Below are positions 9,386 to 28,757 of a DNA stretch of 64,000 nt, in pieces. The DNA lies in assembly GCA_017513085.1 (NCBI GenBank), contig JAFWDK010000027.1:160564-224563 (forward strand), written 5' to 3'. Within the stretch, counting starts at the first letter, position 1; every line of letters starts with the position of its first letter. A program made the position numbers and the translations under genes. Source of the DNA: Clostridiales bacterium (GTDB lineage: Bacteria > Bacillota > Clostridia > Saccharofermentanales > Saccharofermentanaceae). A model generated the notes under the pieces. The model was not told where the DNA came from and searched no databases. It was given only the letters and a program-made list of their open reading frames with translations.

Positions 9386-10318
9386 ATGAAGAAAAGTATA
9401 GCATGCATCGCGGCTCTTTCTTTGATCCTGGCTATGGCCGGCTGCAACAGCAAGAAAGAGACTGAAAAGAGATGGACACCACCGTCCGGTACAGGAGAGG
9501 AATCTGCTCCTTCTGAAGAAACAACCACTACAGAAGAGACAACAGAGGAGACAACAACAGCTGAAGAGACAACGACAGCGGCTGAATCTTCCAAGGAGAC
9601 ATCTGCTGATGCTTCCGAAACATCTGCTGACGCTTCCGAGACTTCTGCTGACGCTTCCGAGACTTCTGCCGAGTCCGGAAAAGTTATGTCTTACAAGGAG
9701 TACAAGGACGCAGCTCTTGATTCCGAGGTAACGATCGAGGCTTATGTACAGGCTAAGCAGTCCTGGTGGGATAACAAAGCTACCGTATATCTTCAGGACG
9801 AAGATGGTGCTTATTTCGCCTACAACATGGCTTGCACCGAAGAAGATTATGCGAAGCTCACAGATGGCCAGAAGATCCGCGTGAAGGGCTTCAAGTCCGA
9901 GTGGTCCGGCGAAGTGGAGATCGTTGACGCAACTTTCGAAGTGATTGAAGGCACATGGACAGCTACTCCGGTAGATGTAACAGCTGAGCTGGGTACAGAT
10001 GCTCTGATCGACAAGCAGAACCAGAAAGTTTCTTTCACCGGTATGAAGGTAGAAGCTTCCAAGGACGCAGACGGCAAGGAAGTTGCTTTCCTTTACAAGT
10101 ATGACGGATCCGGTGCTGAGGGCGATGACCTCTACTTCCAGGTTTCCGCTAACGACAAGACCTACACATTCACAGTTGAGTCCTACCTCTGCGATAAGGA
10201 TTCCGAAGTGTACAAGGCTGTAAAAGAACTGAAGGTCGGCGACACAGTAGATATGGAAGGTTTCCTCTACTGGTATGAGGGTGCTAACCCGCACATCACA
10301 AAGGTAACCGTTAAGTAA
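9386..10318 (+). CDS. Lipoprotein with Ser/Thr/Glu linker and probable tandem OB-fold domains
   Basis: AGGAG RBS before ATG 9386; lipobox MAGC; beta-rich segments such as LTDGQKIRVKG and LKVGDTVDMEG. Confidence 0.8.
   Translation: MKKSIACIAALSLILAMAGCNSKKETEKRWTPPSGTGEESAPSEETTTTEETTEETTTAEETTTAAESSKETSADASETSADASETSADASETSAESGKVMSYKEYKDAALDSEVTIEAYVQAKQSWWDNKATVYLQDEDGAYFAYNMACTEEDYAKLTDGQKIRVKGFKSEWSGEVEIVDATFEVIEGTWTATPVDVTAELGTDALIDKQNQKVSFTGMKVEASKDADGKEVAFLYKYDGSGAEGDDLYFQVSANDKTYTFTVESYLCDKDSEVYKAVKELKVGDTVDMEGFLYWYEGANPHITKVTVK
9596..9670 (+). repeat. 21-bp tandem repeat, about 3.5 copies, encoding ETSADAS
   Basis: GAGACATCTGCTGATGCTTCC-like units read directly. Confidence 0.9.
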
Positions 10319-13638: not shown

Positions 13639-13765
13639 AGTTTACACCTTCAGAATCACTTGTCGGGGACTTATAAAAATCCACGATAATAATACCAGTA
13701 TTCGGAAGAATTGGAAAGAGAGCCACAAGTGCGCTATAATGTTGCTGAATATTTAGGGGCGGTAA

Positions 13766-15457
13766 ATGGGCATTTTCGAAGAAAAAACATATCAGGTCAA
13801 GTGTAGCGGTCTTTCCAACGAAGGACAGGGTGTCGCGCGTATTGAGAGCGACCGTGAAAAAGATAACGGACTAAAGGTATTTGTGGACGATCTCTTACCC
13901 GGAGAGGTCGCTAAGATCCGTATTACTTCGCGTGAGAAGAACCTGGCTCACGGAGAAAAGATCGAAACCGTATCCGAATCGCCCAACCGTGTTGTGCCTG
14001 TCTGCTCCGAGTTCACCAAGTGTGGTGGATGTCAGATTCAGCATGCCGACTATGCCTGCCAGCTCAAAATGAAGGAAGACATGGTCCGCTCTTGCCTGCA
14101 CCGTATCGGGCATATTTCCCTTTCCGACCTTCACTCGGTCAGCGAGCCCATCTTAGGCGCCCCGGACCAGTTCTTTTACCGCAATAACGTTCAGTATCCG
14201 ATCGAATACAGTCATGCCAAGAAGAGCGTGAATATCGGTCTTTACGAGAAGAAGAGCCACAAGATCGTGGAACATGAGAAGTGTTACCTCGTTCATCCGT
14301 CAGCCGAAGTGATCCGTGGTGTGGCGCAGATCTATTTCAGCGACCACTCCCGTGCCAATATTGCTAAATATCTCCGGCAACTCATTGTTCGTGTGGGTTT
14401 TTTCAGCAAGGAAATGATGGTCGTTCTCGTCTGCACACGTCCTATCAAGCTCGATGCGGAAGAATTCGTCCAGACTTGCGAGAGAGCCATGTCACAGGCA
14501 CAGATCGGTATGCACATCTCCAGTATCTGGACACAGGAAACCAAGGACCGTGCCAAGAAGGGGGCTTCCGATTGTTGGACCAATGTCTGGGGGAAACCCT
14601 ATATTCATGAATTCCTGGAACACCGGGTATTCCGCATCTCGCCGGATGCTTTTTTCCAGGTCAACAGTAAACAGACGATCCATCTGTATTCCAAAGTTAA
14701 AGAATATCTCCGCTACGACGGAGCGCTTCCCCGTCTTCTTGTGGATCTTTACTGTGGCACCGGCAGTATCGGCATCTTCTGCTCCAGTGTCTGCCATCAC
14801 CTGGTCGGTATCGAGTCAGTCGAGTCTGCCGTAATCGATGCGCGCGCCAATGCTACAGCTAATTATCTTGAAAACGCCGAGTTTTTCTGTGGTAAAGCAG
14901 AGGACTACGATTTCGGCGCAATGATGCCGGACGCGGTCGTCATCGATCCTCCTCGCAAAGGCTGCGACGAAAAACTGCTCCGCGAACTACTGCATCTGGC
15001 CCCTACCCGGATCGTTTACGTTTCCTGTAACCCTTCCACATTAGCGCGGGACCTTCACCGTCTCTTCCAGATCCAGGAAGAGGGCGACACACGCTACGGC
15101 ATCAGCCGTATCTGCCCGGTGGATATGTTCCCGAATACGTCTCATGTCGAGACTGTTGTCTTGCTTTCCAAGGAAAACATATCGACAAAACATGTTCGGG
15201 TTGAGTTTAATCTTGAAGAGATGGATATGTCAGGATTCAAGGTCGGTGCTACTTATGAAGAGATAATCGCATGGGTTCAGGAGAAATACGGTTTCCATGT
15301 TACTCATCTTAATATTGCTCAGGTCAAGCGCAAGTGCGGGATCGTTGAAAGAGAGAACTACAATCTTCCAAAATCACCGGACTCAAGACAACCGAATACT
15401 CCTAAGGAAAAAGAGGATGCGATCAAGGATGCGTTCAAGCATTTTAATATGATCTGA
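13766..15457 (+). CDS. rlmD: 23S rRNA (uracil-5)-methyltransferase; the last 101 aa derive from the integrated element
   Basis: TRAM domain, CxxxxxCGGC, AFFQVN, DLYCGTG, DPPRKG, YVSCNP, DMFP..HVE; continues 101 aa past the Glu of HVE. Confidence 0.95.
   Translation: MGIFEEKTYQVKCSGLSNEGQGVARIESDREKDNGLKVFVDDLLPGEVAKIRITSREKNLAHGEKIETVSESPNRVVPVCSEFTKCGGCQIQHADYACQLKMKEDMVRSCLHRIGHISLSDLHSVSEPILGAPDQFFYRNNVQYPIEYSHAKKSVNIGLYEKKSHKIVEHEKCYLVHPSAEVIRGVAQIYFSDHSRANIAKYLRQLIVRVGFFSKEMMVVLVCTRPIKLDAEEFVQTCERAMSQAQIGMHISSIWTQETKDRAKKGASDCWTNVWGKPYIHEFLEHRVFRISPDAFFQVNSKQTIHLYSKVKEYLRYDGALPRLLVDLYCGTGSIGIFCSSVCHHLVGIESVESAVIDARANATANYLENAEFFCGKAEDYDFGAMMPDAVVIDPPRKGCDEKLLRELLHLAPTRIVYVSCNPSTLARDLHRLFQIQEEGDTRYGISRICPVDMFPNTSHVETVVLLSKENISTKHVRVEFNLEEMDMSGFKVGATYEEIIAWVQEKYGFHVTHLNIAQVKRKCGIVERENYNLPKSPDSRQPNTPKEKEDAIKDAFKHFNMI
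15126..15173 (+). other. attL
   Basis: ...CATGTC-GA-GACTGTTGTCTTGCTTTCCAAGG; the P' arm ends in TTCCAAGG, 23 nt from the GA core. Confidence 0.88.
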
Positions 15458-15590
15458 TTGAAGATACTTTAGTTAATCACGCCGTGGGTAGTTGGAGCAA
15501 TCCAATGTCCTGCGGCGGTTTTATTATGCCTGAAGGTATTGTGTCCGATGGTATAATTGAAGCAGATGGATTCAATAGGCAACGGGAGGT

Positions 15591-16172
15591 GTGGCAATGA
15601 ACATAAGAAAAATAACATCTCTGGTACTTGTCTTTGTATTTGTGTTCTCATTTACCGCCTGCAAGAAAACTGATGTCCCCGAGCTGGATAGAATCTTGAA
15701 TTATTCAGTTGAACAGTTTGATGATCTGGCAAGCAGCGTTGATGAGAAGGATTTGATCAAAGCATGGGGTGAACCGCAAGCATTAGGCAGCCGCAGATTC
15801 TGGAGAATCAGTGTTGAGGGCGAGACGACAAAGTTTGTTGTGGCATGGGTTGAGAACGGAAACGTAACATCTATTCACGTTTCCAAGCCTCTGTTTATCA
15901 ATGTTGCAGCTATAGAAAACGGCGTAGCTTACTGCGTATTTGGTTGGAATTACTATTCTACTGATGCAGCTAATCTTGCATTTATGCCAACACAGGACTG
16001 TTTTGGCAATGAGATTGCATGTGAGGTTGGTGATCAATTCATATTCCAATTTGACGGTATGATCATGGAGTCTTATCCGGCACAGATCAACGCTCCATAC
16101 TCGGCTGTTCGGATGGGACACCTGTCTGACGAAGAAATCTCCGAGATGGCAAGTAACATTGTATTACCGTAG
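15591..16172 (+). CDS. Hypothetical lipoprotein (cargo)
   Basis: GGAGG RBS; lipobox FTAC. Confidence 0.8.
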   Translation: MAMNIRKITSLVLVFVFVFSFTACKKTDVPELDRILNYSVEQFDDLASSVDEKDLIKAWGEPQALGSRRFWRISVEGETTKFVVAWVENGNVTSIHVSKPLFINVAAIENGVAYCVFGWNYYSTDAANLAFMPTQDCFGNEIACEVGDQFIFQFDGMIMESYPAQINAPYSAVRMGHLSDEEISEMASNIVLP

Positions 16173-16201
16173 CGATTATCTTTGATCGTTATTTCGACGG
16201 A

Positions 16202-17119
16202 TCAATACACAAGCAGTCCGTTTTCCATTTTGAGTAATCGATCATCTACAAAGACAATTGGTACTATCTCGGAGTCGTTATTTTCTGCACAGTTGAAATC
16301 CACAATATATTTTAAAGCCTGCTCTTCGCCGGGAAATATAATCAATTGATATGGAAAGTTATAATCCAGCTTTTCTAATAACATAACACCTTCGGATTTT
16401 GTATGAATCAGGACAGCCGCGTGACCGCAATGCAAAATGTACTGATCACTATCATCATAAATATCAGATCCGTTAAACCATATAGAAATCAAGCTGATGT
16501 TATTGTTTCCCTGGAAACTAATGCCGGTCTGTCTCCAATACTCATTTATTTGCTCCGCCTGTTCAGACACACTGATGTTTTCGGACGATTCTATACCGTT
16601 GAATAATAATGTGAATTGTCTGATATCTGAATCAGACTGAAAAACGGATGAATCGTTGATTTCAACAAGCATCATCGGCTCTGTCACTTGGGAAGCTGTG
16701 TCGTATGAAATAAGCGAACCCATAGCTTCAAATGCAGTTAATCGGCAGTTTCTTCTGCCGGTTAGATTCCCATATTTACTCTTCCATTTTCTTTCTAGCT
16801 TTGTTGAATCATATGCGGATGCAGCGTTTTCAGTAAAAACCGCAAATCCGCTTTGTACTGGTAAAATATCTCCTGTAGCAGCATTGTACTGAATGATGTT
16901 TTCGAGCAAGGCATCTATATAAGGCTTTTGAACGCCTGCTTCTTCCAAAGCTGTCCTTAGAACATCCTGCGATTCCAGATCAACAAGGTTACTGTATACT
17001 GCATCATACGGAGAACCCTGTGACTCTGTCTTGCTGTTTTGCGTTCCACAGCCTGTAACAAGTAGTATTAAACATAATGTTGTTACGAAGGTTAATACGC
17101 TATTTAATGATTTATTCAC
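16202..17119 (-). CDS. DUF4300-like lipoprotein
   Basis: Lipobox VTGC; YSNLVD, NCRLTAF, GHAAVL, LLEKL..PYQ motifs. Confidence 0.75.
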   Translation of the reverse strand: MNKSLNSVLTFVTTLCLILLVTGCGTQNSKTESQGSPYDAVYSNLVDLESQDVLRTALEEAGVQKPYIDALLENIIQYNAATGDILPVQSGFAVFTENAASAYDSTKLERKWKSKYGNLTGRRNCRLTAFEAMGSLISYDTASQVTEPMMLVEINDSSVFQSDSDIRQFTLLFNGIESSENISVSEQAEQINEYWRQTGISFQGNNNISLISIWFNGSDIYDDSDQYILHCGHAAVLIHTKSEGVMLLEKLDYNFPYQLIIFPGEEQALKYIVDFNCAENNDSEIVPIVFVDDRLLKMENGLLVY

Positions 17120-17137
17120 TCTTTATAATCCTTTCCA

Positions 17138-17953
17138 TCAATTCGGAATATATGTATTAGTTTCCTGATTGAAGAAGGAATAATAATCGAACCCATCAAC
17201 TAAACCTTCAAACTCGGCAAAATCCATAAATCGATAGATTTTGTTATCAGGTGTAACTATAGCTTCCATATCTCCATAATATAAGTATACCAGCTGTTGT
17301 CCAGCATGCTGTTGTAGAAAACTGTTGTACTGGGAATACCATGATCCACCGAAAGCAATGCCATACCAAAGGCCATTCTCATCTTTTGATACGGATATAA
17401 CGGATATAAGATCTTCGTCGTTATAGACTAGAAAATCTCTCCAATTGACAGCTACAGAATTATCATTTGTTCTGTAATGTCCATACCCCGTTTCGCTGAT
17501 GACCATATTCTGAGCATTAACACCAGATGCCTCAAGACTGTTTTTGATGCCTGCATAGTTTTCCATTAGAAATGCATAGGCTTCTTCATTTGTTAACCAA
17601 TAATCTACACCCGTTAAATGAACACAAGCTCTATCCGTGATAATTACGCCTTCTTCTCCGCATCCGTCAGGAACTGTTTCGTTAGTTGATCCATGAGATG
17701 TCTGAAGCGTTTCCTCTGTAGCCGTAGAACTTATAGATTCTGAAATCAAGGTATTCTCAGTTGTGAACGTATCCTTCCTAGGTAATAACTTTATAACCAT
17801 AACTGCAATACCTGCTACTATCAAGACTGATGCAGCGATCCCAATGTATCGAACCCAAGCCGCATTTTTCTTTGCCTTTTGAAATGTCTTCGCTTCCTCA
17901 ATAAATCTATCGTCTATGATTTCGAATGTATCCAATATGAATTCTCTTCTCAT
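17138..17953 (-). CDS. Putative membrane anti-sigma factor
   Basis: IDDRFIEEA N-terminal motif plus one TM; overlaps the ECF sigma stop. Confidence 0.75.
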   Translation of the reverse strand: MRREFILDTFEIIDDRFIEEAKTFQKAKKNAAWVRYIGIAASVLIVAGIAVMVIKLLPRKDTFTTENTLISESISSTATEETLQTSHGSTNETVPDGCGEEGVIITDRACVHLTGVDYWLTNEEAYAFLMENYAGIKNSLEASGVNAQNMVISETGYGHYRTNDNSVAVNWRDFLVYNDEDLISVISVSKDENGLWYGIAFGGSWYSQYNSFLQQHAGQQLVYLYYGDMEAIVTPDNKIYRFMDFAEFEGLVDGFDYYSFFNQETNTYIPN

Positions 17954-18510
17954 AATTCGAACCCCCTTGCTAACAGATAATCGCGGAGTTTGATCCTGAT
18001 GCGACGAATTGATGTGGATATATTATTCTCACTTGTTCCTAGTCTTAAGGCAATTGACTTGATATCATCAGCGTACCAATACCGACGTACTATCATTACT
18101 CTTTTCTCCAACGGGAGATCATAAAGAAAATCGTTAATTGCCTTTGCCAGATCATTGCGGACAACATCATCTTCGGGACTGGGATTATCTGACGCAATTT
18201 CACCGATTTCATCCAGTAGAGCCGGAATCACATTGCCGCCGCGCTTTTCTGCTAAGTTCTTACGATATCGATCCAAGGAAATGTTTCGAACGATGCGTCC
18301 GATAAAAGCAGAGAAGACGGATGGTTTCTGTGGCGGAATGGTATTCCATACCCTGGAATATGTATCATTCACACATTCTTCTGAATCCTCATTGTTATAG
18401 AGGATGTTGTAGGCAATGGAAAAGCAGTAGTTGCCGTACTTTCGCGAAGTCTCAGTAATTGCCGATTCGTCGCGATTCCAATATAAGCGAATTATTGCAT
18501 CATCATTCAT
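17950..18510 (-). CDS. ECF RNA polymerase sigma factor
   Basis: DSEECVNDTY (region 2); RRYWYADDIKSIA (region 4); AAGGAGG RBS. Confidence 0.92.
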   Translation of the reverse strand: MNDDAIIRLYWNRDESAITETSRKYGNYCFSIAYNILYNNEDSEECVNDTYSRVWNTIPPQKPSVFSAFIGRIVRNISLDRYRKNLAEKRGGNVIPALLDEIGEIASDNPSPEDDVVRNDLAKAINDFLYDLPLEKRVMIVRRYWYADDIKSIALRLGTSENNISTSIRRIRIKLRDYLLARGFEL

Positions 18511-18533
18511 CAAGATGACCTCCTTCACTTATA

Positions 18534-18561
18534 TAGACGTATTCCTCACATGAATCTGACA
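18534..18561 (-). promoter_or_regulatory. Probable autoregulated ECF promoter
   Basis: TGTCAG-N16-CGTCTA directly upstream of the ECF RBS. Confidence 0.6.
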
Positions 18562-18581
18562 GTTATTATTCTACCATTTTG

Positions 18582-20306
18582 TCAATCATCAGTTTCATCT
18601 ATCCTTCTAAATACAGCAACTACATCTGGTTCGTAATACAAGGTCTCATAATCATCGTTTAAGTAATCATCAACACTGTACTTGTCGTTTTCCTGTCGAA
18701 GATCTACGACATAATACTCAGTCTTGTTGTCCGTTCGTTCCAGTTCATAAACAACATCGTGATCCGAGAAGTCGGCTACAAAGAAAGCTGTAGCCGTAAC
18801 AGATGCATCTTCAGGCACAAGGGAGACAGCGTAGTTTATCTTTGCACGTTTTTCCGCCGAACGGTTAAAGAAATCTATGTACCCCAGGTGGTCATAATTG
18901 ATGCTTGAACATAATACTATCGTACAGCACGCACCATATAGAAGCAGTTTATCTCGATGTTTTTCTTTAAGGTCGGCATAGTTGAGTACTGCCAGATATA
19001 CGAGAATAGCACATGTACCAAAGCAGTATTGATATCTCATATCATATTGGTAATGGTAATTCGGCATCAGGTTAATCAATATCCATGGGAGCATAAGAAT
19101 AGCTCTTTTAAAATCCTTTGTTATTATTGGCAGGAATCCCATCGGCATCAGAGTCAGGAACATAAACTTCAGTTTATCTGCCACTGAAATCTGACTTATA
19201 ACGTAGACAGGATCTGAGATTGCGGTTGATAGGATCGACAATGTTCCTTCTCCGTCCTGCAAATAATTGTTATAACGATACAACATTACCCCGTCGCCGT
19301 ATGTGGACAGATAGCGCGTGATACCCACGAAGTATGCAATAGATACTATAAAAATGCATAAATTACATTTGTAGTTTTTATGGGTAAATAAAAAGTACAA
19401 AGCAATAACAGCAACATATACGGCCGCATCTTCTTTGACTGCAAGCAATAATATAGAGAAAAGCGCCTGACCATACCATAATTCTTTTTCACAGAAATAT
19501 ATAAGCCACAAAACAAGCGGTGCAAGGAAACAGTTCTCATGAAGATGGTAGAAACAACCACCGACAAATCCCGGAAAGAATAGATATATCAGTGAGAAGA
19601 TGATCATTGAGGCTTTCCCTAACGAGTGCTTTCTCATGATCAACGCCAAGGGTATTATTCCGGACATTACGATCAAACTTTGCATAAGTTCCAGAGTTAT
19701 AGGACTTGGGAAAAGATAATAGAATGGAAGAATAAGATAGTAGATGGGTGACATATGAACAGAGAAATGTGACATTAAAACATCTCTTTCACAAGTCGTA
19801 AATGGTATGCCTGTCTCTTTCATATAATGAAACATTTGAGAAAATATCCCAAAGTCATAACAGGCAGTCCAATGGTTTATATAGATCAGGCAACAGTTCC
19901 CTCCAACCAGTACGACAAAAAGGAGACATAGGAATAGAATAGAACGTCGGAATGTTTTATTCCCTATTCGCGGTCGGATATCCTTGATATCGGTACTCAG
20001 AATAATAATCCCAAGAACTACACACAGTCCTATTGCGAAATACTGTTCACGATTGATTACTGCCGCAGCTGTAAAGTAGAGGGTCGAAAAGACAATCATG
20101 GCAAGTTTGACAACTCTCTGATCTTTCAATCTGTTGATCAGTAACCAGATCGAGAATACTGCAACTATGAAGAGAATGATCGCCAAGTATTTCACTGAGT
20201 GTAAATTGACCAGATCCATTTGTTTATTGGCAAAATATAATACAGAGACGAGAATCCAGCTTAGTGCAAGATTATATGCTTTGTTAGAATCTAGTTTAGC
20301 GAACAT
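18582..20306 (-). CDS. DUF2079 family polytopic membrane protein (probable GT-C glycosyltransferase)
   Basis: YDFGIFSQ, SHFSVHMSPI, YHLHEN, VKED, YQY motifs; many TM segments. Confidence 0.8.
   Translation of the reverse strand: MFAKLDSNKAYNLALSWILVSVLYFANKQMDLVNLHSVKYLAIILFIVAVFSIWLLINRLKDQRVVKLAMIVFSTLYFTAAAVINREQYFAIGLCVVLGIIILSTDIKDIRPRIGNKTFRRSILFLCLLFVVLVGGNCCLIYINHWTACYDFGIFSQMFHYMKETGIPFTTCERDVLMSHFSVHMSPIYYLILPFYYLFPSPITLELMQSLIVMSGIIPLALIMRKHSLGKASMIIFSLIYLFFPGFVGGCFYHLHENCFLAPLVLWLIYFCEKELWYGQALFSILLLAVKEDAAVYVAVIALYFLFTHKNYKCNLCIFIVSIAYFVGITRYLSTYGDGVMLYRYNNYLQDGEGTLSILSTAISDPVYVISQISVADKLKFMFLTLMPMGFLPIITKDFKRAILMLPWILINLMPNYHYQYDMRYQYCFGTCAILVYLAVLNYADLKEKHRDKLLLYGACCTIVLCSSINYDHLGYIDFFNRSAEKRAKINYAVSLVPEDASVTATAFFVADFSDHDVVYELERTDNKTEYYVVDLRQENDKYSVDDYLNDDYETLYYEPDVVAVFRRIDETDD
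19364..19373. promoter_or_regulatory. Intragenic BlaI-type operator
   Basis: TACATTTGTA inside a 21-bp exact copy of the operator upstream of the repressor gene. Confidence 0.55.
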
Positions 20307-20332
20307 GACAAGAAGAATCCTTTCAAGAATCT

Positions 20333-20346
20333 ACTACAAATGTAGT
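20333..20346. promoter_or_regulatory. BlaI/MecI/CopY-type operator upstream of DUF2079
   Basis: ACTACA-AA-TGTAGT palindrome. Confidence 0.8.
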
Positions 20347-20364
20347 TTATTGGGGTAAAAAAAT

Positions 20365-21579
20365 TTATTCGCTTGGATAAGCGGTCATAGAGGTTGTTGT
20401 TTCTGTAATAGCAGTGGTAGTCGTTGGGATTGTTTCATCGCCGAAATACTGCACATACGAAGTTTCTTCCACTTCCATGTTGTCAATATCCATATAATAC
20501 GTCGTGACTTCAGTCATATCTTCTTCACCTATCCAATATGTTGTCTCCGCACTAGATTCGGGAGTGTTCATGATGGTCGTAGTTACAGACGGGTAGGAGT
20601 CATTGTATGAAGAATCCTGAGAAGAGATATCTTTAGATGCAATAGCAAATCCCGATATGCACGTAAGAAGAATAATCGCAATCAATGTACCTATAAATAG
20701 TCTACGAGATCCTGATAGGATCAATTGAAGTCTGTGCTTAAGGCTTTGTTTAGGAGAATAAAAGTTGGTCGTTATAGCTGGTGTGGGGCTAACTGAAAAC
20801 GTAGATCTGGTTGCTGAGACTGTATTAAGGATCGACTCACAATATACTTTTCGCATTTGTGCATCCTCATCAGAGGTGACGGCCATATCACAATAATATT
20901 CGCATTCCTGTTCGAGTTTCCTGCTTATCACTATCATCAAGGGATTGAACCAGTGCATGGTGCGACATACCGTGATGAAAAGCTTAATCCAAAGGTCATG
21001 ATGTTTATAATGTGTAAGCTCGTGCTTAATGATTAATCTCAGTTCGTTATAACCATAACTTCTGCAGGGGATAAGGATTATCGGATTGATAAGCCCGGTC
21101 ATCATTGGTGACGAGATGCATTCGGATGTATACACCTCTATTGGTCTTTTTATCTTGAGTGCTTTAGATACTTCACTTGTCAATTCCTGTATATCAGAAG
21201 GCGCCGATTTTGCAAATCGCATAACTGTTTTATTCCATGCAGTACTACGTATAATGTAGAAAAGAATAAATGATACCGCTCCGATAAGATAAATGGCAGT
21301 TACAACAGACATAGGATTAATCAGTGATGTCGTACTAGTATGGACTGTATTTGTAGCAACAACAGGATTTGCTGGTGCTGTATTCTCTAAAGTAACCAAT
21401 GCACTTCCCCAATGGGGTCTGATTGGAATGAGAAATCCGATAATAACGACAAGCCAAGAATAGTATCTGATCGATGGAGACTGTTTATTGCTAAGAACGC
21501 GTGAGACTATCAGATAGATTACTGCGACTATGGACATGTTCATTGAGCAAATGAGAATATTAAGCATTGCACACCTCAC
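20365..21579 (-). CDS. M56 family (BlaR1-like) metallopeptidase signal transducer
   Basis: HELTH zinc motif, HWFNP, ECEYYCD; Thr/Ser-rich C-terminal tail in place of a penicillin-binding domain. Confidence 0.9.
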   Translation of the reverse strand: MRCAMLNILICSMNMSIVAVIYLIVSRVLSNKQSPSIRYYSWLVVIIGFLIPIRPHWGSALVTLENTAPANPVVATNTVHTSTTSLINPMSVVTAIYLIGAVSFILFYIIRSTAWNKTVMRFAKSAPSDIQELTSEVSKALKIKRPIEVYTSECISSPMMTGLINPIILIPCRSYGYNELRLIIKHELTHYKHHDLWIKLFITVCRTMHWFNPLMIVISRKLEQECEYYCDMAVTSDEDAQMRKVYCESILNTVSATRSTFSVSPTPAITTNFYSPKQSLKHRLQLILSGSRRLFIGTLIAIILLTCISGFAIASKDISSQDSSYNDSYPSVTTTIMNTPESSAETTYWIGEEDMTEVTTYYMDIDNMEVEETSYVQYFGDETIPTTTTAITETTTSMTAYPSE

Positions 21580-21947
21580 ATATCATTAAGCCAGTTCTTG
21601 AGTTCACTAATATCTTCGTCAGATATCTCGCCATCACTATATAAGGCCTTCACAAAACCTGACATCTTATTTGCACCGAATCTACTTTTCAGTGATTCTG
21701 CCTCAATGTTCATATATTGTGACTCGCTGATAACAGCATAATATCCACGCTCTTTGCCATTCTTTTCGGAATGCAGAAAGCCTTTCTTTTCCAACCTGAC
21801 AAGCATAGTCATGACGGTTTGCTGTTTCCAATCACGATCATGAAGATCCCTGCTTAAGATTACCGTGAGGGCTGGAGAAGTTACAGGCTGCTCGATATGC
21901 CAAATAGCCTTCATTATTTCAAATTCTGCATCCGGTAGTTTTTTCAT
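21576..21947 (-). CDS. BlaI/MecI/CopY family repressor
   Basis: LPDAEFEIMKAIW, W..QTVMTMLVRLEKKG; overlaps the M56 start. Confidence 0.93.
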   Translation of the reverse strand: MKKLPDAEFEIMKAIWHIEQPVTSPALTVILSRDLHDRDWKQQTVMTMLVRLEKKGFLHSEKNGKERGYYAVISESQYMNIEAESLKSRFGANKMSGFVKALYSDGEISDEDISELKNWLNDM

Positions 21948-21970
21948 TGCACGAATAATCTTTCATAAAT

Positions 21971-21980
21971 TACATTTGTA
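21971..21980. promoter_or_regulatory. Autoregulatory BlaI-type operator
   Basis: TACATTTGTA about 24 nt upstream of the repressor start. Confidence 0.8.
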
Positions 21981-22076
21981 GTTTATCTAATGATAAGTCA
22001 ATAATTCCGTGTTGTCAATTTGAAATATGAGAAAACGGCAGTCATCGATAAACAAGACTATATCCCTTAGGTTACT

Positions 22077-22120
22077 AAGGGCGCACTTCTATACATACCC
22101 TACGGGATGTATCAGTGCGC
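22077..22120. other. oriT (MOBQ-type nic region)
   Basis: AAGGGCGCACTT is the reverse complement of the AAGTGCGCCCT nic consensus; nested inverted repeats GCGCACT/AGTGCGC and ATACAT/ATGTAT. Confidence 0.8.
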
Positions 22121-22220
22121 TCTCCGAGGGCAGGTAATGCAACTTCGCTTCAGATGCATTAATCTTCGTCACGTTCGTTCCGGACAAGAGGCTCAGCCTC
22201 TTGCGCCACTATGGTGGCTA

Positions 22221-23582
22221 TCACCAATCCCGCCACTTCAGGCGGTCGTATTCATGGAACCTTATATGAGGATATTGAGCCGCATACCGCTCACAGTAAT
22301 CAGCGGGTCTGCATCTGACATAGATGTTGATGATCGACTCATATAACGGGGCAAACTTCTTCGCGGCATATTCGATCTTTTCAAGATCGTTCCGATCAAA
22401 GCGTCGATCCGTATCTCGGACTATTTTGACGAAAAGCATTTTGCCATCGTATGGAATTACGCTTTCAAAGTGATAAACAAAACCTTTCTCGATAACATCA
22501 GATGGTCTTATGCTGCAAAGCGGATTCCCCGTATACAAGTCATCCAGCCCGAAATCAATGTTCAGTGCGTGAAGGTGACATGCCTTTTCGTATTCCTGTT
22601 CAGATAATCTTGTAACCGCTTTAATGTAGTCATCGGTAATTTCCGGAAATTGCTGAGGTCGAGCCAATCGCATTTTTTCTTTGATCAGGAAGGAATAGTA
22701 TAGCTCCATATATATGTTTCGGAAGTAATAGCATTTCCCGGAATGTTTAAGTATCCGAACATCAACAAGGGAGCGAAGATACTTCTCACATTTATTATAT
22801 GCATATCCTGTTACGGAACCGATCTCGCTTATACGAGTATTATCCTCTGCAATGACAGTAAGTAGTTCATTATATATCTCCGGTTTGCGGAAATAATGAT
22901 CCATCAGATGCGGCATATAATTCATCAACGGCGAATCAATGCGGGTCAGGTTCCAAGCCGCATCTTTGAAATTTTCATATTCAGAAAAAAGCCGGACAAG
23001 TTCCGGTATTCCTCCGGTTGCCGTGCTTACCAGGAGAGAATTCTGCGCATCCATCTTCGGAAGCATCTTATGAACGTCGGAAAGTGCCAGATGATTCACA
23101 GTGCAAGGGAATATGTTTTTGCCCATCCCCGTGGGAAGCCGTTCTCCGACAAGACAGATAAAAATGTTATTGCGATCCGGATCGAACCTAAACTTTTCGA
23201 AAGCATCGATAAACCCAATATAATCTTCTGTTTTCTGGATATCGTCAAGGATAAAGATCTTATAATGCCAGCCTGACAGATGCTTCATCGTTTCAAAGAT
23301 ATCACTCCAATTATCACTTGCCGCTTTGATGCCGGTGTACCTTTCAACACGCTCGGCTAACAGCTTCTGTGCGCAATTCTCCGACTGACCTTTAAATGAA
23401 AAATAGCACAGATCGGCTCGGTTCTCATAAGCCTTTAAAACAAGAGATGTCTTGCCGCAGTGAGGCTCTCCCAAAACGGCAAGTATCTCCCGCGGTTCAC
23501 CCCAACCGTTCTTGTCATGGAGGTTTTCCTTGAACAGCCCTTTTAACTCATTAACGTAAATCGTTCTCGGCGCGAATAACAT
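22221..23582 (-). CDS. P-loop ATPase (archaeal-ATPase/DUF234-like) with a winged helix
   Basis: Walker A GEPHCGKT, Walker B IFILDD, TGGIP motif. Confidence 0.75.
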   Translation of the reverse strand: MLFAPRTIYVNELKGLFKENLHDKNGWGEPREILAVLGEPHCGKTSLVLKAYENRADLCYFSFKGQSENCAQKLLAERVERYTGIKAASDNWSDIFETMKHLSGWHYKIFILDDIQKTEDYIGFIDAFEKFRFDPDRNNIFICLVGERLPTGMGKNIFPCTVNHLALSDVHKMLPKMDAQNSLLVSTATGGIPELVRLFSEYENFKDAAWNLTRIDSPLMNYMPHLMDHYFRKPEIYNELLTVIAEDNTRISEIGSVTGYAYNKCEKYLRSLVDVRILKHSGKCYYFRNIYMELYYSFLIKEKMRLARPQQFPEITDDYIKAVTRLSEQEYEKACHLHALNIDFGLDDLYTGNPLCSIRPSDVIEKGFVYHFESVIPYDGKMLFVKIVRDTDRRFDRNDLEKIEYAAKKFAPLYESIINIYVRCRPADYCERYAAQYPHIRFHEYDRLKWRDW

Positions 23583-23845
23583 ATTTCACCTTCTCAGTAA
23601 ATAATCAACTTATAAGTTGATAAAAGTGCTTTCATTATACATCAAACGGCATTTTGATTCATTGTTGACAATTTTCGTTCTGAACAAAATGCCCATAAAA
23701 TAAGGCTCTTTAAAAAGTTTACAAAATAATTTCGATCATTTGTCTACCAACTGCCCGGAAAACCACTAACAAAAAGTAGAAGCACCTGAAAGGGCAAGAA
23801 TGTCTTTTTCGAAGGTTTCAATAATCAAATTTGCAGGAGGTAAGA

Positions 23846-24172
23846 ATGAAAAAACAAACAGTCGAAGACATCAGGAAGGAGATCATATCCACAGAAAAGG
23901 ACAAGGTGATCATCGTACATCAGATCAAAAGGCTGGAGAACCGGGCAAACTATTACACCAAAGCTGAGAAGCGAAAAAGAACGCATCACCTGTGTAATAT
24001 CGGCGGTGCAATCGAGGCTCTTTTCCCTATTTCGAAGACACTTTCAAAGACAGAATTCTTCGAATTTATGGAGAAGATTTCAGCATTGCCGGATGTTGTT
24101 TCCTTGGTAAAAGAGACAGAGAACAGAATTATGATAAACACCGCTGACGATCACGGGAAGGATGTGGTCTGA
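23846..24172 (+). CDS. DUF3847-like mobilization accessory protein
   Basis: Coiled coil plus RKRTHHLCNIGGAIE; coupled to the relaxase by TGATG. Confidence 0.75.
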   Translation: MKKQTVEDIRKEIISTEKDKVIIVHQIKRLENRANYYTKAEKRKRTHHLCNIGGAIEALFPISKTLSKTEFFEFMEKISALPDVVSLVKETENRIMINTADDHGKDVV

Positions 24173-25611
24173 TGGCGCTCTATCATTTTTCCGTAACACA
24201 GGTTAAGCGAAGTGCAGGACAAAGCGCGATTGCCTGCGCATCGTATCGTGCAGGGGAACGTCTTTACAGTCAATATTACGATGAGGTCAGTGATTACTCC
24301 AAGAAAGGGGGCGTGATCTATAGTGAGATCATGCTTCCAGAGAATGCACCTAAGGAATATGCGGATCGGGAAACACTCTGGAACGCTGTCGAAGATGTGG
24401 AGAAACACCCCAAGGCACAGCTGGCATATAGCTTTGATATTGCTCTTCAGAACGAATTATCCCAAGAAGAAAATATCGATCTGGCTAGAAGATTTGTGAA
24501 GGAATATCTTGTGGCAGATGGTATGATCGCTGATCTTGCCGTTCACAATCCTGAACGTGACGGGAACCCCAATCCTCATATTCATATCCTTACAACGATG
24601 CGGCCTCTTAATCCTGACGGAAGCTGGGGATCTAAGCAGCATCGTGAATATCTTTTTGATGATCAGGGGAATCCCGTAAAGGATGAGAAAGGTAATCAGA
24701 AATATAAAGCGGTACCGAATACCGATTGGGGAACACCCGAGAAACTTCAGCAATGGCGCGAGGATTGGGCAAACCTCGTTAATTCCAAATTCGAAGAGAA
24801 AGGTCTTCCCTGTCGAATAGACCACAGATCTTATGAGAATCAGGGCATTCATGAACTTCCGACAGTTCACGAAGGTCCGACTGTCCGTGCGATGGAACTG
24901 AAAGGCATTCCAACGGAAAAGGGCGAGTATAACCGATGGATACGAAAGACAAATGCGATGATCAGGGGTCTTCTCTCTAAGATTAAAGAAATGGTCGCCG
25001 CTATCAAAGACATGCGCGAAGAAATCAAGAGAATCGAGGAAGAACCTTCTCTCGCAGATCTGTTGATGGCAGGTCGAACCCCAGCAAAATCATCGTTACA
25101 GGATCTGAAATTCCTCTCGGCGGATATTCTCTTCCTTCAGAAACATTCTATCTATCGAATCGATGATCTTGAGAACTATCTTGAAAAGATGGAGTCTCTT
25201 AAGCAGTCGCAGAAAGATCGTCTGGATAAATGCAATGCCCGGAGAAAAGAAGTGAAAGAACTTATCTCCTTGCTTGATATCTATCACGAGACCAAGCCGA
25301 TCTACGAAGAAGGCATGAAGAAATTCTTCGGCAAAGAGAAGTATATGCAAGAAAACGAAGGCAGGATCAAACAATATCAGATGGCAAAGAGAAAACTCGC
25401 CAAAGCATCAAAGTCTCGCGGCGGAAAACTCACAAAGAAAATGCTCGAAAAGGAACTTGCAGCATTGGATTCGGAGTATTCCGCTATCCGCGATGAATTC
25501 GTCAAGAGTCGAGACGAAGTCCAAACGGTAAGCAGGATCCAGTATTCGATACAGCGCGGGCTCGAAGCAAAACATCCTCATAAAACCAGAGCTACAGATC
25601 TATCACTTTAA
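24172..25611 (+). CDS. MobA/MobL (MOBQ) relaxase
   Basis: MALYHFS, SAIACASYRAGE, NPHIHIL, RIDHRSY. Confidence 0.95.
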   Translation: MALYHFSVTQVKRSAGQSAIACASYRAGERLYSQYYDEVSDYSKKGGVIYSEIMLPENAPKEYADRETLWNAVEDVEKHPKAQLAYSFDIALQNELSQEENIDLARRFVKEYLVADGMIADLAVHNPERDGNPNPHIHILTTMRPLNPDGSWGSKQHREYLFDDQGNPVKDEKGNQKYKAVPNTDWGTPEKLQQWREDWANLVNSKFEEKGLPCRIDHRSYENQGIHELPTVHEGPTVRAMELKGIPTEKGEYNRWIRKTNAMIRGLLSKIKEMVAAIKDMREEIKRIEEEPSLADLLMAGRTPAKSSLQDLKFLSADILFLQKHSIYRIDDLENYLEKMESLKQSQKDRLDKCNARRKEVKELISLLDIYHETKPIYEEGMKKFFGKEKYMQENEGRIKQYQMAKRKLAKASKSRGGKLTKKMLEKELAALDSEYSAIRDEFVKSRDEVQTVSRIQYSIQRGLEAKHPHKTRATDLSL

Positions 25612-25633
25612 AAATACGGAGGTATATAAATAT

Positions 25634-25888
25634 ATGAAAAAGTATTATAACAATCCCAAATATGATGCGGCATTTGATCGTTGCGTCAATATATTGGCAA
25701 CCCTTATGGTGAAGTACGGCCCGAGAGTGCTTCTGAAGCAGGCCGTTGAAAGAATACTTGGTAAGGGACGCCTGAGTATCTACAATCCTGAAAGTCCTAA
25801 GATCAAGAAAGAACGTCTTATCGCGTATCAGAAAGAGTACGGCAAGATCAGTTCTTCCGCTAAGGATGTAAAAGATAAAGCCGCATAA
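25634..25888 (+). CDS. Small element-encoded protein
   Basis: GGAGG RBS; lies between the relaxase and recombinase modules. Confidence 0.7.
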   Translation: MKKYYNNPKYDAAFDRCVNILATLMVKYGPRVLLKQAVERILGKGRLSIYNPESPKIKKERLIAYQKEYGKISSSAKDVKDKAA

Positions 25889-25907
25889 GACACAAATCTA
25901 CAATTTG

Positions 25908-25952
25908 TGCGTTGCACATGATATGATTATTAGTTATTATTAGTGCAACGCA
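25908..25952 (+). promoter_or_regulatory. SigA promoter bracketed by a 10-bp inverted repeat
   Basis: TTGCAC-N17-TATTAT; TGCGTTGCAC (25908-25917) / GTGCAACGCA (25943-25952). Confidence 0.7.
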
Positions 25953-25966
25953 TAGATAAGGAGATT

Positions 25967-26179
25967 ATGATCATGGACTGCAAGACAAAGATAAAAGAAC
26001 TTCGTGAGATGACAGGAATGAACAGAACGGAGTTTTGTGAGTACTTCCAGATTCCATACGGAACAGTTACCGATTGGGAACGTGATTACCGTCATGCACC
26101 GGAATATGTTCTCCGCCTTCTGGAATACTACATCCGTATGGAGAATCTCATAAAAGACAATAAGGACGAAACGAAGTAA
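25967..26179 (+). CDS. XRE-family HTH regulator
   Basis: IKELREMTGMNRTEFCEYFQIPYGTVTDWE; AAGGAG RBS. Confidence 0.88.
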   Translation: MIMDCKTKIKELREMTGMNRTEFCEYFQIPYGTVTDWERDYRHAPEYVLRLLEYYIRMENLIKDNKDETK

Positions 26180-26218
26180 CCGCATCGAATTACATACGGT
26201 TAGAAAGGAAAAGATAAT

Positions 26219-27079
26219 ATGGCTAACAAACCCATTAAAGATACTATTCATGCTAAAGGATTTGATATCGGTATATATACCACCGATTACGAGAATGAAT
26301 TTATATCATTGACGGATATCGCAAGATATAAGAGCGATATGCCTCATGATGTGGTCAAAAACTGGATGAGGAGCCGAGAAACAATAGAGTTTCTTGGAAT
26401 CTGGGAGAGTCTGCACAATCCGAATTTTAAACAGGTCGAATTCGACCTGTTTAGAAAGGAAGCAGGATTGAACGCATTCACAATGTCACCTACAAAGTGG
26501 ATCGAAAGTACAAATGCTATCGGCATCGTTACAAAAGCCGGACGTTATGGCGGAACTTATGCGCATTCCGATATTGCACTCGAGTTTGCATCTTGGGTAT
26601 CTGCCGAATTCAAACTTTATATCATGAAGGACTATCAGAGACTAAGGCGTGATGAAAGTAGCAGGCTGTCTCTTGCATGGAACCTTCACCGCGAGATTGC
26701 CAAGCTTAATTACCGTGTTCATACCGATGCGATCAAGGATAATCTGATTCCACCGGAACTGACATCAACGCAGATCTCATATAAGTATGCAAGTGAAGCA
26801 GATATGCTTAATGTCGCACTTTTCGGTAAGACTGCTAAAGAATGGCGGGATGAGAATCCTGATAAAAACGGCAATATGAGAGATTATGCTACTCTGAATC
26901 AACTCCTTGTTCTGGCTAACATGGAAAGCTATAACGCAATTCTTATTGAACAAGGAAAGCGGATGTCAGAACGTCTTGTTCTCATTAGAAAGCAAGCTAT
27001 TAAACAACTTCAGACACTTGATCTGGTAAGTCTGGACAATCTGCCCAAGCTCCCGGGAGGAGATAATAATGAAGAATAA
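26219..27079 (+). CDS. KilA-N domain DNA-binding protein
   Basis: FISLTDIA, WMRSRETIEFLG, GRYGGTYAHSDIALEFASW. Confidence 0.9.
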   Translation: MANKPIKDTIHAKGFDIGIYTTDYENEFISLTDIARYKSDMPHDVVKNWMRSRETIEFLGIWESLHNPNFKQVEFDLFRKEAGLNAFTMSPTKWIESTNAIGIVTKAGRYGGTYAHSDIALEFASWVSAEFKLYIMKDYQRLRRDESSRLSLAWNLHREIAKLNYRVHTDAIKDNLIPPELTSTQISYKYASEADMLNVALFGKTAKEWRDENPDKNGNMRDYATLNQLLVLANMESYNAILIEQGKRMSERLVLIRKQAIKQLQTLDLVSLDNLPKLPGGDNNEE

Positions 27080-28757
27080 TAAAAAGAAATGTTATATCTA
27101 TACCCGTGTCTCCACGATGATGCAAGTCGATGGATTCAGCCTTGATGCCCAGAAAGATAAACTCCGCAAGTATGCTGATTATCAAGATTGGGAGGTCGCT
27201 GCTGAGTATTCCGACGAAGGATGCTCCGGTAAGAATATCCAAGGCAGACCTGAGTTCTCGCGCATGATGTCAGATATTGAGGATTGCAAAGATGGAGTCA
27301 GTTATGTTCTCGTCTTTAAGCTTTCACGTTTCGGTCGTAATGCCGCAGATGTTCTGAATTCCTTGCAGATCATGCAGGATTTCGGGGTGAATCTCATCTG
27401 TGTGGAAGATGGTATCGACAGTTCCAAGGATGCAGGTAAGCTCATGATATCCGTCCTTTCCGCTGTTGCTGAGATTGAGAGGGAGAATATCCGTACTCAG
27501 ACCATGGCAGGACGTGAGCAGAAAGCTCGCGAAGGCAAATGGAACGGAGGCTTTGCTCCTTATGGTTATAAGCTTGAAAATGGAGAACTCCTTATTGCCG
27601 ATGATGAAGTTGAGATCATCAATATCATATTTGATCGCTATATACATACGAAGGACGGGATTAACGGCGTAGCAAGCTACCTGAATTCGCATGGCTATAC
27701 AAAGAAGTTACGTCAGAATAATACTATTCCGGGGTTTTCCTCTTCATTTGTTAAGGCAGTAATAGATAATCCGATATATATGGGGAAGATAGCATACGGG
27801 CGTCGAAAGACAGAAAAGAAGATCGGTACCCGTAATGAAATGCACGTTGTGGAGCAATCTGTATTCCCTGTTTATGAAGGTGCACATGAGGCGATAATCT
27901 CTGAAGTGGACTGGAATCTTGCGCAGGAGAAGAGAAAACTTAATGCTTACAAACGCCAGAAGGTTCATGATATCGATCACGCACATATACTTTCGGGAAT
28001 CCTTAAGTGTCCTTGTTGTGGGAAGAGTCTATACGGAAATATCGCCAAGGCACACAGCAAGGATAACAAGACGCGATTCTACTACTATTGCAAGAACACC
28101 TTAGGGGCGACCGGACATCGTTGCACATTTAGACATAATATAGAACAGACAGAGATCAACCAGATGGTTGCATCTATAATATCTGCAATGGTTACAAGAC
28201 CGGACTTCAAGGAAGCGATCACCGAAAAGATAGGATCCGCTGTTGATACCAAGGATATGGAAAAACAGAAGGAAGCCTTGCAGGATAAACTCAGGCAGAC
28301 TCTGGGAACCAAATCCAAGCTTGAGCATCAGATGGACAGTCTAGATGTCCTTGATCCGCACTATGACAGGAAGATGCTGGATCTTCAAAGAAGATATGAT
28401 CAGCAGTACGACATCCTTGCCGATATAGAGAATCAAATCGAGGACCTGAAAGAACAGATTCGTCATATTCAACATGAAAATATAACCGGTAATAATATCT
28501 ATCAGTTGCTTCTAACTTTCGATGAATTGTATGATGAATTCAACGAAGCAGAGAAAAAGGATTTCATGAGATCATTCGTAGAGCGTATCGACATATATCC
28601 CGAAAAGCCTGAAAACGGCTGCTGGATAAAGAATATCGTGTTTAACTTCCCCATTCCGATGAATGGGGAAGACATCACGGAATTGCCCTTGGAATCTCAA
28701 AAGACCGCTGAGACGGTAGTTCTTCTGTCCAAACTATCCAGCACAGCCAGGCTGTAA
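27069..28757 (+). CDS. Large serine recombinase; the last 14 aa are the displaced native rlmD tail
   Basis: YTRVST catalytic Ser, LSRFGRN, APYGY, zinc ribbon CPCCG...YYYC...C, coiled coil; reads through attR. Confidence 0.96.
   Translation: MKNNKKKCYIYTRVSTMMQVDGFSLDAQKDKLRKYADYQDWEVAAEYSDEGCSGKNIQGRPEFSRMMSDIEDCKDGVSYVLVFKLSRFGRNAADVLNSLQIMQDFGVNLICVEDGIDSSKDAGKLMISVLSAVAEIERENIRTQTMAGREQKAREGKWNGGFAPYGYKLENGELLIADDEVEIINIIFDRYIHTKDGINGVASYLNSHGYTKKLRQNNTIPGFSSSFVKAVIDNPIYMGKIAYGRRKTEKKIGTRNEMHVVEQSVFPVYEGAHEAIISEVDWNLAQEKRKLNAYKRQKVHDIDHAHILSGILKCPCCGKSLYGNIAKAHSKDNKTRFYYYCKNTLGATGHRCTFRHNIEQTEINQMVASIISAMVTRPDFKEAITEKIGSAVDTKDMEKQKEALQDKLRQTLGTKSKLEHQMDSLDVLDPHYDRKMLDLQRRYDQQYDILADIENQIEDLKEQIRHIQHENITGNNIYQLLLTFDELYDEFNEAEKKDFMRSFVERIDIYPEKPENGCWIKNIVFNFPIPMNGEDITELPLESQKTAETVVLLSKLSSTARL
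28687..28734 (+). other. attR
   Basis: CCTTGGAATCTCAAAAGACCGCT-GA-GACGGTAGTT...; the P arm starts 23 nt from the GA core. Confidence 0.88.

Follow-up and report, generated by a model that had tools for sequence, protein, structure and literature searches.

Exchange of gene ends between an integrating element and its host has been described for the integrative and conjugative elements (ICEs) found in rumA of streptococci. Of the two repeats of these elements, one is in rumA and the second within the gene of the serine integrase; integration swaps the 3' parts of the two genes, and the integrase of the excised element differs in length and C-terminus (Ambroset et al. 2016, PMC4701971). According to the same study, the replacement changes the frame of both proteins, and the two integrase forms are probably functionally different by analogy with Mx8 (intP/intX), in which attP lies in the integrase gene and integration replaces a C-terminus of about 110 residues by a short one, giving a less active enzyme. 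Two integrative mobilizable elements (IMEs) in rumA were added by Coluzzi et al. 2017 (PMC5357655). In engineered fusions of a serine integrase to its recombination directionality factor (RDF), a small accessory protein tethered at the C-terminus was found to alter the direction of recombination (Olorunniji et al. 2017, PMC5737554). The present analysis concerns an element in a stretch of 64,000 nucleotides (the window) from a Clostridiales bacterium of the Saccharofermentanaceae (assembly GCA_017513085.1, contig JAFWDK010000027.1, positions 160,564 to 224,563). The element occupies window positions 15149-28709 (13,561 bp, one core copy counted) in the last codons of rlmD, and its second junction lies in the gene of its own large serine recombinase (LSR). 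Features of the window are on the + strand unless stated otherwise.

The rlmD open reading frame (ORF) spans 13766..15457 and encodes 563 aa, with codon 462 (GAG) beginning at 15149, and the LSR ORF spans 27069..28757 and encodes 562 aa, with codon 548 (GAG) beginning at 28710. The sequence GAGAC is present at both 15149-15153 and 28710-28714, each ORF crosses it in frame, and after this core both encode ETVVLLSK, all nucleotide differences between the two copies being synonymous. Upstream of the left core, 13766..15148 is the host part of rlmD (RlmD residues 1-461), with TRAM and U5-methyltransferase domains (TIGR00479 rumA, E 2.5e-97; PF05958; PF01938). The family profiles stop at the junction motif, TIGR00479 covering residues 16-462 of the fusion and PF05958 extending to residue 469; because both end there, ETVVLLS is regarded as the conserved end of the methyltransferase. 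From the left core onwards, 15149..15457 encodes the tail, an element-encoded stretch of 102 aa fused to RlmD, which comprises ETVVLLSK, a linker and a three-helix domain before the stop codon, as characterised below by profile searches, substitution rates and AlphaFold2.

The left core (15149..15153) is that of attL, and its sequence, a contig boundary in metagenomic run X7 and a pair of related loci, L117 and L114 (both below), place the probable crossover at GA 15149-15150. The right core (28710..28714) is that of attR; identity to the element in run X7 ends at 28712. Within the LSR ORF, 28687..28709 is the left arm of attP, which at present forms the left half of attR, and the following 28710..28757 is the former 3' end of the host rlmD (ETVVLLSKLSSTARL and the stop codon), now forming the C-terminus of the LSR; its first ~21 nt match the 3' end of rlmD at an empty site in a related genome. 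The element-derived arms 28687-28709 and 15151-15173, compared separately and unjoined, share a perfect 8-bp outer inverted repeat (CCTTGGAA), with the right copy at 15166-15173; when 26-mers of the window were paired at random 200,000 times, a run of at least 8 arose in 0.03%. In relatives, a similar TTGGRA motif is present at equal distance on both arms of natural attP-like junctions. Since attP lies about 100 codons before the LSR stop, rlmD and the LSR gene trade their 3' ends on integration. An element-free RlmD is predicted to have 461 + 15 = 476 aa, and an LSR with intact attP 547 + 102 = 649 aa.

Much of this had been proposed in a sequence-only reading of the stretch, which described a shared in-frame GAGAC core followed by ETVVLLSK, an attP inside the recombinase ORF with exchange of the 3' ends, sizes of 563 and 562 aa in the integrated against 476 and 649 aa in the excised state, and a perfect 8-bp terminal inverted repeat of the attP arms. 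The core and peptide are confirmed from the sequences of both ORFs, the structural reading is upheld by the ORFs, the empty site and the att arms, the arithmetic of the sizes holds, and the repeat was found again in the separate comparison of the arms. The core itself varies: in run X6 a G>A change is present at 28712, the third core base, in attR only, and the long-form LSRs P0276 and P0334 have KTV in place of ETV at the junction.

An empty site was sought in 18 genomes of the same genus, 17 of which gave a listed orthologue match. It was found in the closest genome, G013, whose RlmD has 471 aa and ends in HVETVVLLSRGK; the host part of the RlmD studied here is 93% identical to this element-free orthologue. 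The G013 locus (L004) aligns to window positions 12277-15177 and then 28766-29927, the 13.6 kb between them being absent and both flanks syntenic. At the empty site GAGAC is followed by the same bases as those behind the attR core. Therefore, attR has a right half derived from the host, whereas that of attL comes from the element. Across the 17 genomes, RlmD reaches into the tail in three (G001, G003 and G005), and in the other 14 the match ends at query residue 469-493; in G008 only a weak, paralogue-like RlmD match was seen. Element-free relatives thus lack the 101-aa tail on rlmD, in agreement with the sequence-only reading. Behind the empty rlmD of G013, the intergenic region at L004 2990-3190 contains, by eye, about three tandem copies of a ~60-bp unit with CACGTGGGTG...GCGCCCACGTCAAAATTGAAAA; in the window only 8 bp separate the rlmD stop codon from the next gene.

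The same element was found elsewhere in metagenomic data. The runs come from animal gut metagenomes, and run X7 belongs to a study other than that of the likely source runs. Two of its contigs agree with the element without a single difference, over 15146-26266 and 26426-28712 respectively, and both then run into sequence unlike the window (22 nt and 3220 nt). Depth in this run was 0.4-0.8 on the window flanks versus 14 for the element. An identical element therefore sits in another context, with its ends within 3 nt of the core, and its presence between different flanks argues for recent movement, as far as contig sequences can tell. The loci L117 and L114, a natural pair of attP-like junction and attL from a relative, are unrelated upstream and identical from GTTGAGAC onwards. 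Together, the data from X7 and X6 and this pair fit a crossover in the GA of GAG, the exact dinucleotide being the one that we infer. No joint of 15149 to 28710, nor the back-joint, is listed in the contigs of four runs, and contigs drop rare variants. A metagenome scan with the tail of the LSR cluster P0372 gave 26 loci, none with terminal direct repeats, and terminal repeats were likewise not found in two virome scaffolds that were read whole.

The element-encoded part of the LSR (27069..28709, residues 1-547) has the domain order of large serine recombinases, with PF00239 at residues 9-158, PF07508 at 179-290 and PF13408 at 307-368. It matches the phrog_95 integrase (E 2.3e-115), the solved N-terminal domain 3guv in the PDB (E 7.4e-71) and the SPbeta integrase 9dxh. 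A YTRVST motif is located at residues 11-16, where R13, V14, S15 and T16 are at least 90% conserved among 45 aligned homologues; S15 is presumably the catalytic nucleophile, as in the family generally. In a model of the 76%-identical homologue P0285, rather than of the window protein, the zinc-ribbon domain contains a coiled coil formed by helices 394-422 and 431-468. In the integrated state all canonical domains are retained, the tail is gone, and 15 host-encoded residues form the end of the protein. The best NCBIfam match is CcrB (E 2.1e-60). CcrB and CcrC of SCCmec and XisF are large serine recombinases with the same domain order; assignment of the LSR to any of the three was rejected, as it scores 204.9, 169.9 and 140.1 bits, respectively, far under the NCBIfam cut-offs of 900, 900 and 375.

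Both forms of the LSR occur in nature. A survey of the 120 closest homologues (69-94% identical) found 30 long forms of 646-698 aa with the tail, including large clusters such as P0372 with 4939 and P0291 with 825 members, and 56 proteins ending a few residues past a strict ETVxLLS-type motif. The other 34 were examined by hand; 32 of them start E-[TCSA]-x with an RlmD-like end and two do not. In total, 118 of the 120 homologues read through the junction in the frame of the RlmD-like E-[TCSA]-x motif. Such a survey had been named in the sequence-only reading, according to which the frame across attP is conserved, and the claim stands, with exceptions, both on this count and on LSRs that are only 39-50% identical, where in-frame long forms are represented by P0076, P0081, P0089, L036, L046 and L084. 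Another in-frame long form was found on a virome scaffold and one at the end of contig C1 of this genome. The LSRs of S. suis and S. constellatus prophages ('_rum', Javan) end in frame on HVECVALL or VECVVLM. Locus L035 has its tail in a different frame from rlmD.

Several loci depart from this pattern in other ways. On pAPRE01, a conjugative plasmid of Anaerococcus prevotii, a 131-aa tail ORF (L001, 3911..4306) lies over the end of a 606-aa LSR, and a second tail match is reported elsewhere in the plasmid. In a human-gut lineage (L113-L118) the right-hand sequence follows rlmD in five loci (L113-L116 and L118) and the LSR in one (L117); its tail, for example at 9900-10210 in both L114 and L117, has a stop after ETVCLLSRNDM, and the helices are frameshifted with an internal stop. 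Among the 120 closest LSR homologues, four continue into other host genes, encoding a CHAP-domain protein (P0359), an FtsX-family protein (P0365), an acetyltransferase (P0368/P0382) and a GDSL lipase (P0380), and tails are found behind an N6 DNA methylase fragment (PF02384) in P0029 and five alike. Taken together, these run-ons and tail-methylase fusions suggest secondary target sites in other genes.

The tail is widely distributed in protein databases, being found in 7978 of 8000 scored candidate longer proteins (E <= 1e-3). The 120 best of the longer proteins, counted by hand, comprise 93 of the U5-methyltransferase family PF05958, 13 of recombinase families, one coiled-coil fragment, six N6-methylase fragments and seven without a family. 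An exhaustive search of cluster representatives with the tail gave 1836 matches at E <= 1e-3 and 927 at E <= 1e-10, and in most of 150 listed representatives the match reaches the last residue of the protein. Substitution rates were computed from 69 ungapped 306-nt copies of the tail, representing 68 loci and the window. The median proportion of synonymous differences (pS) is 0.74, so that synonymous sites are near saturation, and the median proportion of nonsynonymous differences (pN) is 0.26; for the 326 pairs with pS of 0.05-0.6, the ratio of nonsynonymous to synonymous substitution rates (dN/dS) has a median of 0.044 and a maximum of 0.47. The tail is a conserved module under purifying selection, always located directly to the right of the crossover.

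No Pfam (to E <= 10) or NCBIfam model matched the 94 residues after ETVVLLSK. The sole lead is a weak match to phrog_27283, a 69-aa phage family of unknown function (E 5e-4). A search of a protein atlas with the tail brought up nothing but unnamed 'RNA methyltransferase' clusters, themselves made up of these fusions, and Foldseek of the tail model against the PDB gave no usable match (best E 3.7). The bacteriocin BacSp222 was considered as a homologue and rejected, since the PDB profile search aligned only a stretch of 19 residues (E 0.004), taken as a short helix motif. An internal translation start within the tail, at M25 or M27, was likewise dropped, both Met residues being absent in several tail subfamilies.

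An AlphaFold2 model of the tail built from 41 sequences contains helices at residues 36-47, 53-62 and 86-98 with predicted local distance difference test (pLDDT) values of 78-91, preceded by 35 residues of low confidence. In the model of the long-form LSR P0285 (648 aa), beta strands at 503-539 close the canonical part of the protein; the stretch 543-578, spanning the junction, has pLDDT below 50, and the helical domain after it is predicted at pLDDT 80-88. Because the junction residues are of low and the helical domain of high confidence in the models, the tail looks like a small domain on a flexible tether. On the same models, ETVVLLS seems to have a structural role in RlmD and not in the LSR. 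A prediction of the complex between residues 300-562 of the short LSR and residues 9-102 of the tail gave a score of 0.00 (mark 0.32), which weighs neither way.

At the genome level, a scan of contigs from one genome per species detected at least 571 relatives of the tail. Among the best 79 of these loci, the tail is in frame with RlmD in 59 and with an LSR in three, out of frame with RlmD in one, at a contig edge in two, and without either partner in 14. In the isolate genome with locus L046, rlmD::tail is found at 163-165 kb and an LSR::tail junction 14 kb further. At L041 and L029 a tail is followed downstream by an LSR fused in frame to another tail, the first tail of L029 having no preceding rlmD. 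At least some chromosomal long forms are thus junctions inside tandem arrays. The array in the isolate Lachnospiraceae genome G031 (contig C1, 163446-165134 and 179284-179610; L123, L125 and L046) opens with rlmD::tail; its first element is about 14 kb long, with the LSR fused in frame to the tail of the second element, and the second element carries McrBC genes.

Further traces of such elements are present in the genome studied here (G000). A second copy of the arrangement lies in the last 430 bases of its contig C1 (L015, 17230..17661, - strand), where the C-terminal part of an LSR continues in frame into a tail that has diverged (44% identical), the copy being cut by the contig end; a KilA-N fragment adjoins. 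At L015 12608..12877 (- strand) an 89-aa remnant of an LSR C-terminus ending in VETVVCLYRSSLT looks like the leftover attR of a lost element. The second RumA-family gene of the genome (contig C16, 21855-23081) encodes a methyltransferase whose own C-terminus is extended (..NRKPDARVKIDVDLEDYYRIKDEQKK..) and closes with ETVCLLSNRKPD...DLEDYYRIKD; because the contig ends 24 nt past its stop codon, another element may follow this gene. Some short LSRs end in the other host tail type, ...NRKPD..V.IDV.LEDYYRIKD, which is the same as the end of the C16 gene. The C16-type end resembles the linker of several tail subfamilies, and the three helices were not found in the C16 extension. The linker of the tail may therefore descend from a natural C-terminal extension of a target gene.

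Starting from the element, its ends, the reciprocal exchange, the selection on the tail and the natural occurrence of both LSR forms, as documented above, a mechanism may be outlined. On integration, RlmD retains its last conserved motif, ETVVLLSK, resupplied by the element in synonymous codons, and gains the linker and the three-helix domain, this RlmD-tail fusion probably being the price of restoring RlmD in frame. The LSR keeps its canonical domains, sheds the tail and acquires 15 host-encoded residues. It would bear the tail for as long as attP is unbroken, or a junction of attP type within a tandem array. Recombination might in this way toggle the LSR between a long and a short isoform with differing activity or direction, comparable to IntP and IntX of Mx8. 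The preferred reading, to which we assign a probability of roughly 45%, is that the tail serves the LSR as an accessory domain on a flexible tether and that its loss on integration changes activity or direction.

A number of observations weigh against the accessory-domain reading. Over 496 pairs, the identity of the LSR core hardly predicts that of the tail (Spearman 0.10), and where the cores share at least 85% identity the tails share anything from 33 to 100%, which speaks against tight co-adaptation of the LSR with its tail; tandem arrays such as those above would explain this lack of correlation. On the Anaerococcus plasmid pAPRE01 the tail ORF overlaps the end of the LSR in a different frame, and in the L113-L118 lineage the tail has decayed beside the LSR as well as beside rlmD. 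In the P0285 model of the LSR, disorder is predicted for the junction peptide, and the tail has no detectable similarity to solved structures or families in Pfam, PDB profile and Foldseek searches. In addition, conservation of the frame could partly result from a ban on indels inside attP, and not from selection for the long protein.

The frequency of methyltransferase fusions admits another account, in which the tail functionally belongs to the methyltransferase. The element would then carry a replacement 3' end of its target gene, including an extension captured from a RumA-family gene, and LSR::tail would be a by-product of an attP that overlaps the stop region of the LSR gene. A replacement 3' end of the target gene is carried by many integrative elements, and RlmD is in frame with the tail at 59 of the 79 best genome loci, as PF05958 is present in 93 of the best 120 longer matches by hand count. 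The natural end of the C16 RumA-family gene resembles the linker of the tail; its extension, however, spans this linker only and not the helices. Same-genus element-free RlmD ends just 5-20 residues past ETVVLLS, and therefore the three-helix domain is not needed by the host enzyme. The disorder of the linker in the LSR model and the shuffling of tails and LSR cores would suit this account, but the LSR frame is kept across deep divergence, and the tail is also attached to other partners, such as PF02384 methylase fragments. On balance it is considered unlikely.

A comparable standing is given to the possibility that the tail is an autonomous DNA-, RNA- or protein-binding module, a regulator or directionality factor, made, when integrated, from the host promoter of rlmD, a housekeeping gene with constitutive expression, and acting in trans on the short LSR or another target. 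The small proteins speak against it: no stand-alone gene was found among 120 small matches, of which 60 carry the ETVxLLS motif close to the N-terminus and 13 begin with an internal Met, while many of the other 47 begin in the linker just past the junction. The tail has also been assigned to no family or fold, although its weak match to phrog_27283 (E 5e-4) would be in keeping with an independent module. So would strong purifying selection on a sequence without its own start codon, its exchange independently of the LSR core, and its occurrence in IMEs, ICE-like elements and prophages alike. The integrated tail is translated only as a fusion, so its expression depends on rlmD, which also suits this account; even so, we find this explanation improbable. 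Finally, the long frame past the core might be functionless read-through and the shared ETVVLLSK coincidental, as the lack of a Pfam family and the loss of the tail in some lineages could imply. A median dN/dS of 0.044 with synonymous sites near saturation, thousands of conserved copies and a confidently predicted helical domain make this extremely improbable, and the conserved copies together with the tail dN/dS refute it in practice.

The remaining genes of the element serve as cargo or for mobility and maintenance. Immediately behind the tail, 15591..16172 is an ORF of 193 aa from the ORF list, without a Pfam family, whose N-terminal sequence appears lipoprotein-like. It is followed on the - strand by a DUF4300 protein (16202..17119; PF14133, E 4e-44), a 271-aa ORF without a Pfam family (17138..17953) that overlaps the end of the sigma-factor gene and by this position may encode an anti-sigma factor, an extracytoplasmic function (ECF)-type sigma factor (17950..18528; PF04542, PF07638, PF08281), a DUF2079 membrane protein (18582..20306; PF09852, E 1.4e-50), a BlaR1-type M56 peptidase sensor (20365..21579; PF05569, E 1.3e-46), a BlaI/MecI-type repressor (21576..21947; PF03965, E 9.9e-25) and a candidate AAA-type ATPase (22221..23582; PF13401, E 1.6e-5, below the Pfam cut-off). 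On the + strand, a DUF3847 protein (23831..24172; PF12958, E 2.2e-18) is encoded directly upstream of a MobA/MobL relaxase (24172..25611; PF03389, E 9.2e-85). A putative small helix-turn-helix protein (25943..26179; PF01381, E 1.3e-4, just under the cut-off) and a KilA-N domain protein (26219..27079; PF04383, E 5e-19), the end of which overlaps the LSR start by 11 nt, complete the set. Among the 15 ORFs of at least 75 aa that were scanned, no VirB4, coupling-protein or type IV secretion system family was found. Because a relaxase and an LSR are present and no conjugative pore gene was seen, the element is, by its predicted gene content, an integrative mobilizable element with its own integrase and relaxase. 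Promoter and terminator scans around the end of the tail and the LSR operon gave counts not above those of shuffled sequences.

Large serine integrases are normally controlled in direction by a separate directionality factor, and they are prized for genome engineering because this direction is tightly controlled. In a wider form of the accessory-domain reading, the att site in the LSR gene would act as a state switch: long and short forms would prefer opposite directions, the domain handed to RlmD could act in trans, and the position of the att site, not a separate factor gene, would encode directionality in thousands of Firmicute elements. This wider proposal is rather doubtful. The clade is very common in gut Firmicutes, as indicated by at least 571 tail relatives on genome contigs and 7978 of 8000 scored protein candidates, and with every integration or excision both the host RlmD and the LSR C-terminus are altered. 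Should the long and short isoforms differ, these elements would represent a natural, self-rewriting control of recombination direction. Even without such a difference, thousands of database entries named 'RlmD' or 'recombinase' are chimeras made by elements, which is relevant to annotation and to the finding of att sites.

Compared with known systems, the likeness to Mx8 is one of logic only, since its integrase is a tyrosine recombinase and the LSR is a serine recombinase. The displaced 3' end of Mx8 is reportedly not fused to a host protein. Mycobacteriophage BPs is likewise said to have its attP in a coding gene, so that a regulatory protein receives another C-terminus on integration; in that phage it is the repressor gene, not the recombinase gene, that is rewritten, and the enzyme is a tyrosine integrase. 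The integrase-RDF fusions of Olorunniji et al. are artificial, unlike the natural arrangement of LSR and tail. The streptococcal rumA ICEs, IMEs and prophages with 'Ser_4' integrases are closest, having in common with this element the rumA/rlmD 3' target, attR in the integrase gene and the reciprocal exchange. The S. suis phage YS162 has an RlmD::tail fusion whose tail is 49% identical to the one described here (an integrase was not seen at its right end, which was read), and by tblastn this LSR shares 46-50% identity with those of the '_rum' prophages in S. suis and S. constellatus. Unlike the streptococcal elements, this one is a small MobA/MobL element, and its host is an uncultured gut member of Clostridia; one close RlmD match bears the label Saccharofermentanaceae in its source. 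In contrast to the change of frame stated by Ambroset et al., the RlmD frame runs through the core in both genes, in this element as well as in the streptococcal records examined. The available text of Ambroset et al. 2016 and Coluzzi et al. 2017 names no conserved tail domain, and the open literature, supplements excluded, gave no other description of the swapped tail as a domain or test of the two forms. The basic arrangement is real and common to many elements, but was published as early as 2016 (Ambroset et al.), so the news is limited to three points: the tail is a domain under selection, the frame across the core is conserved, and the modules are shuffled, apparently through tandem arrays.

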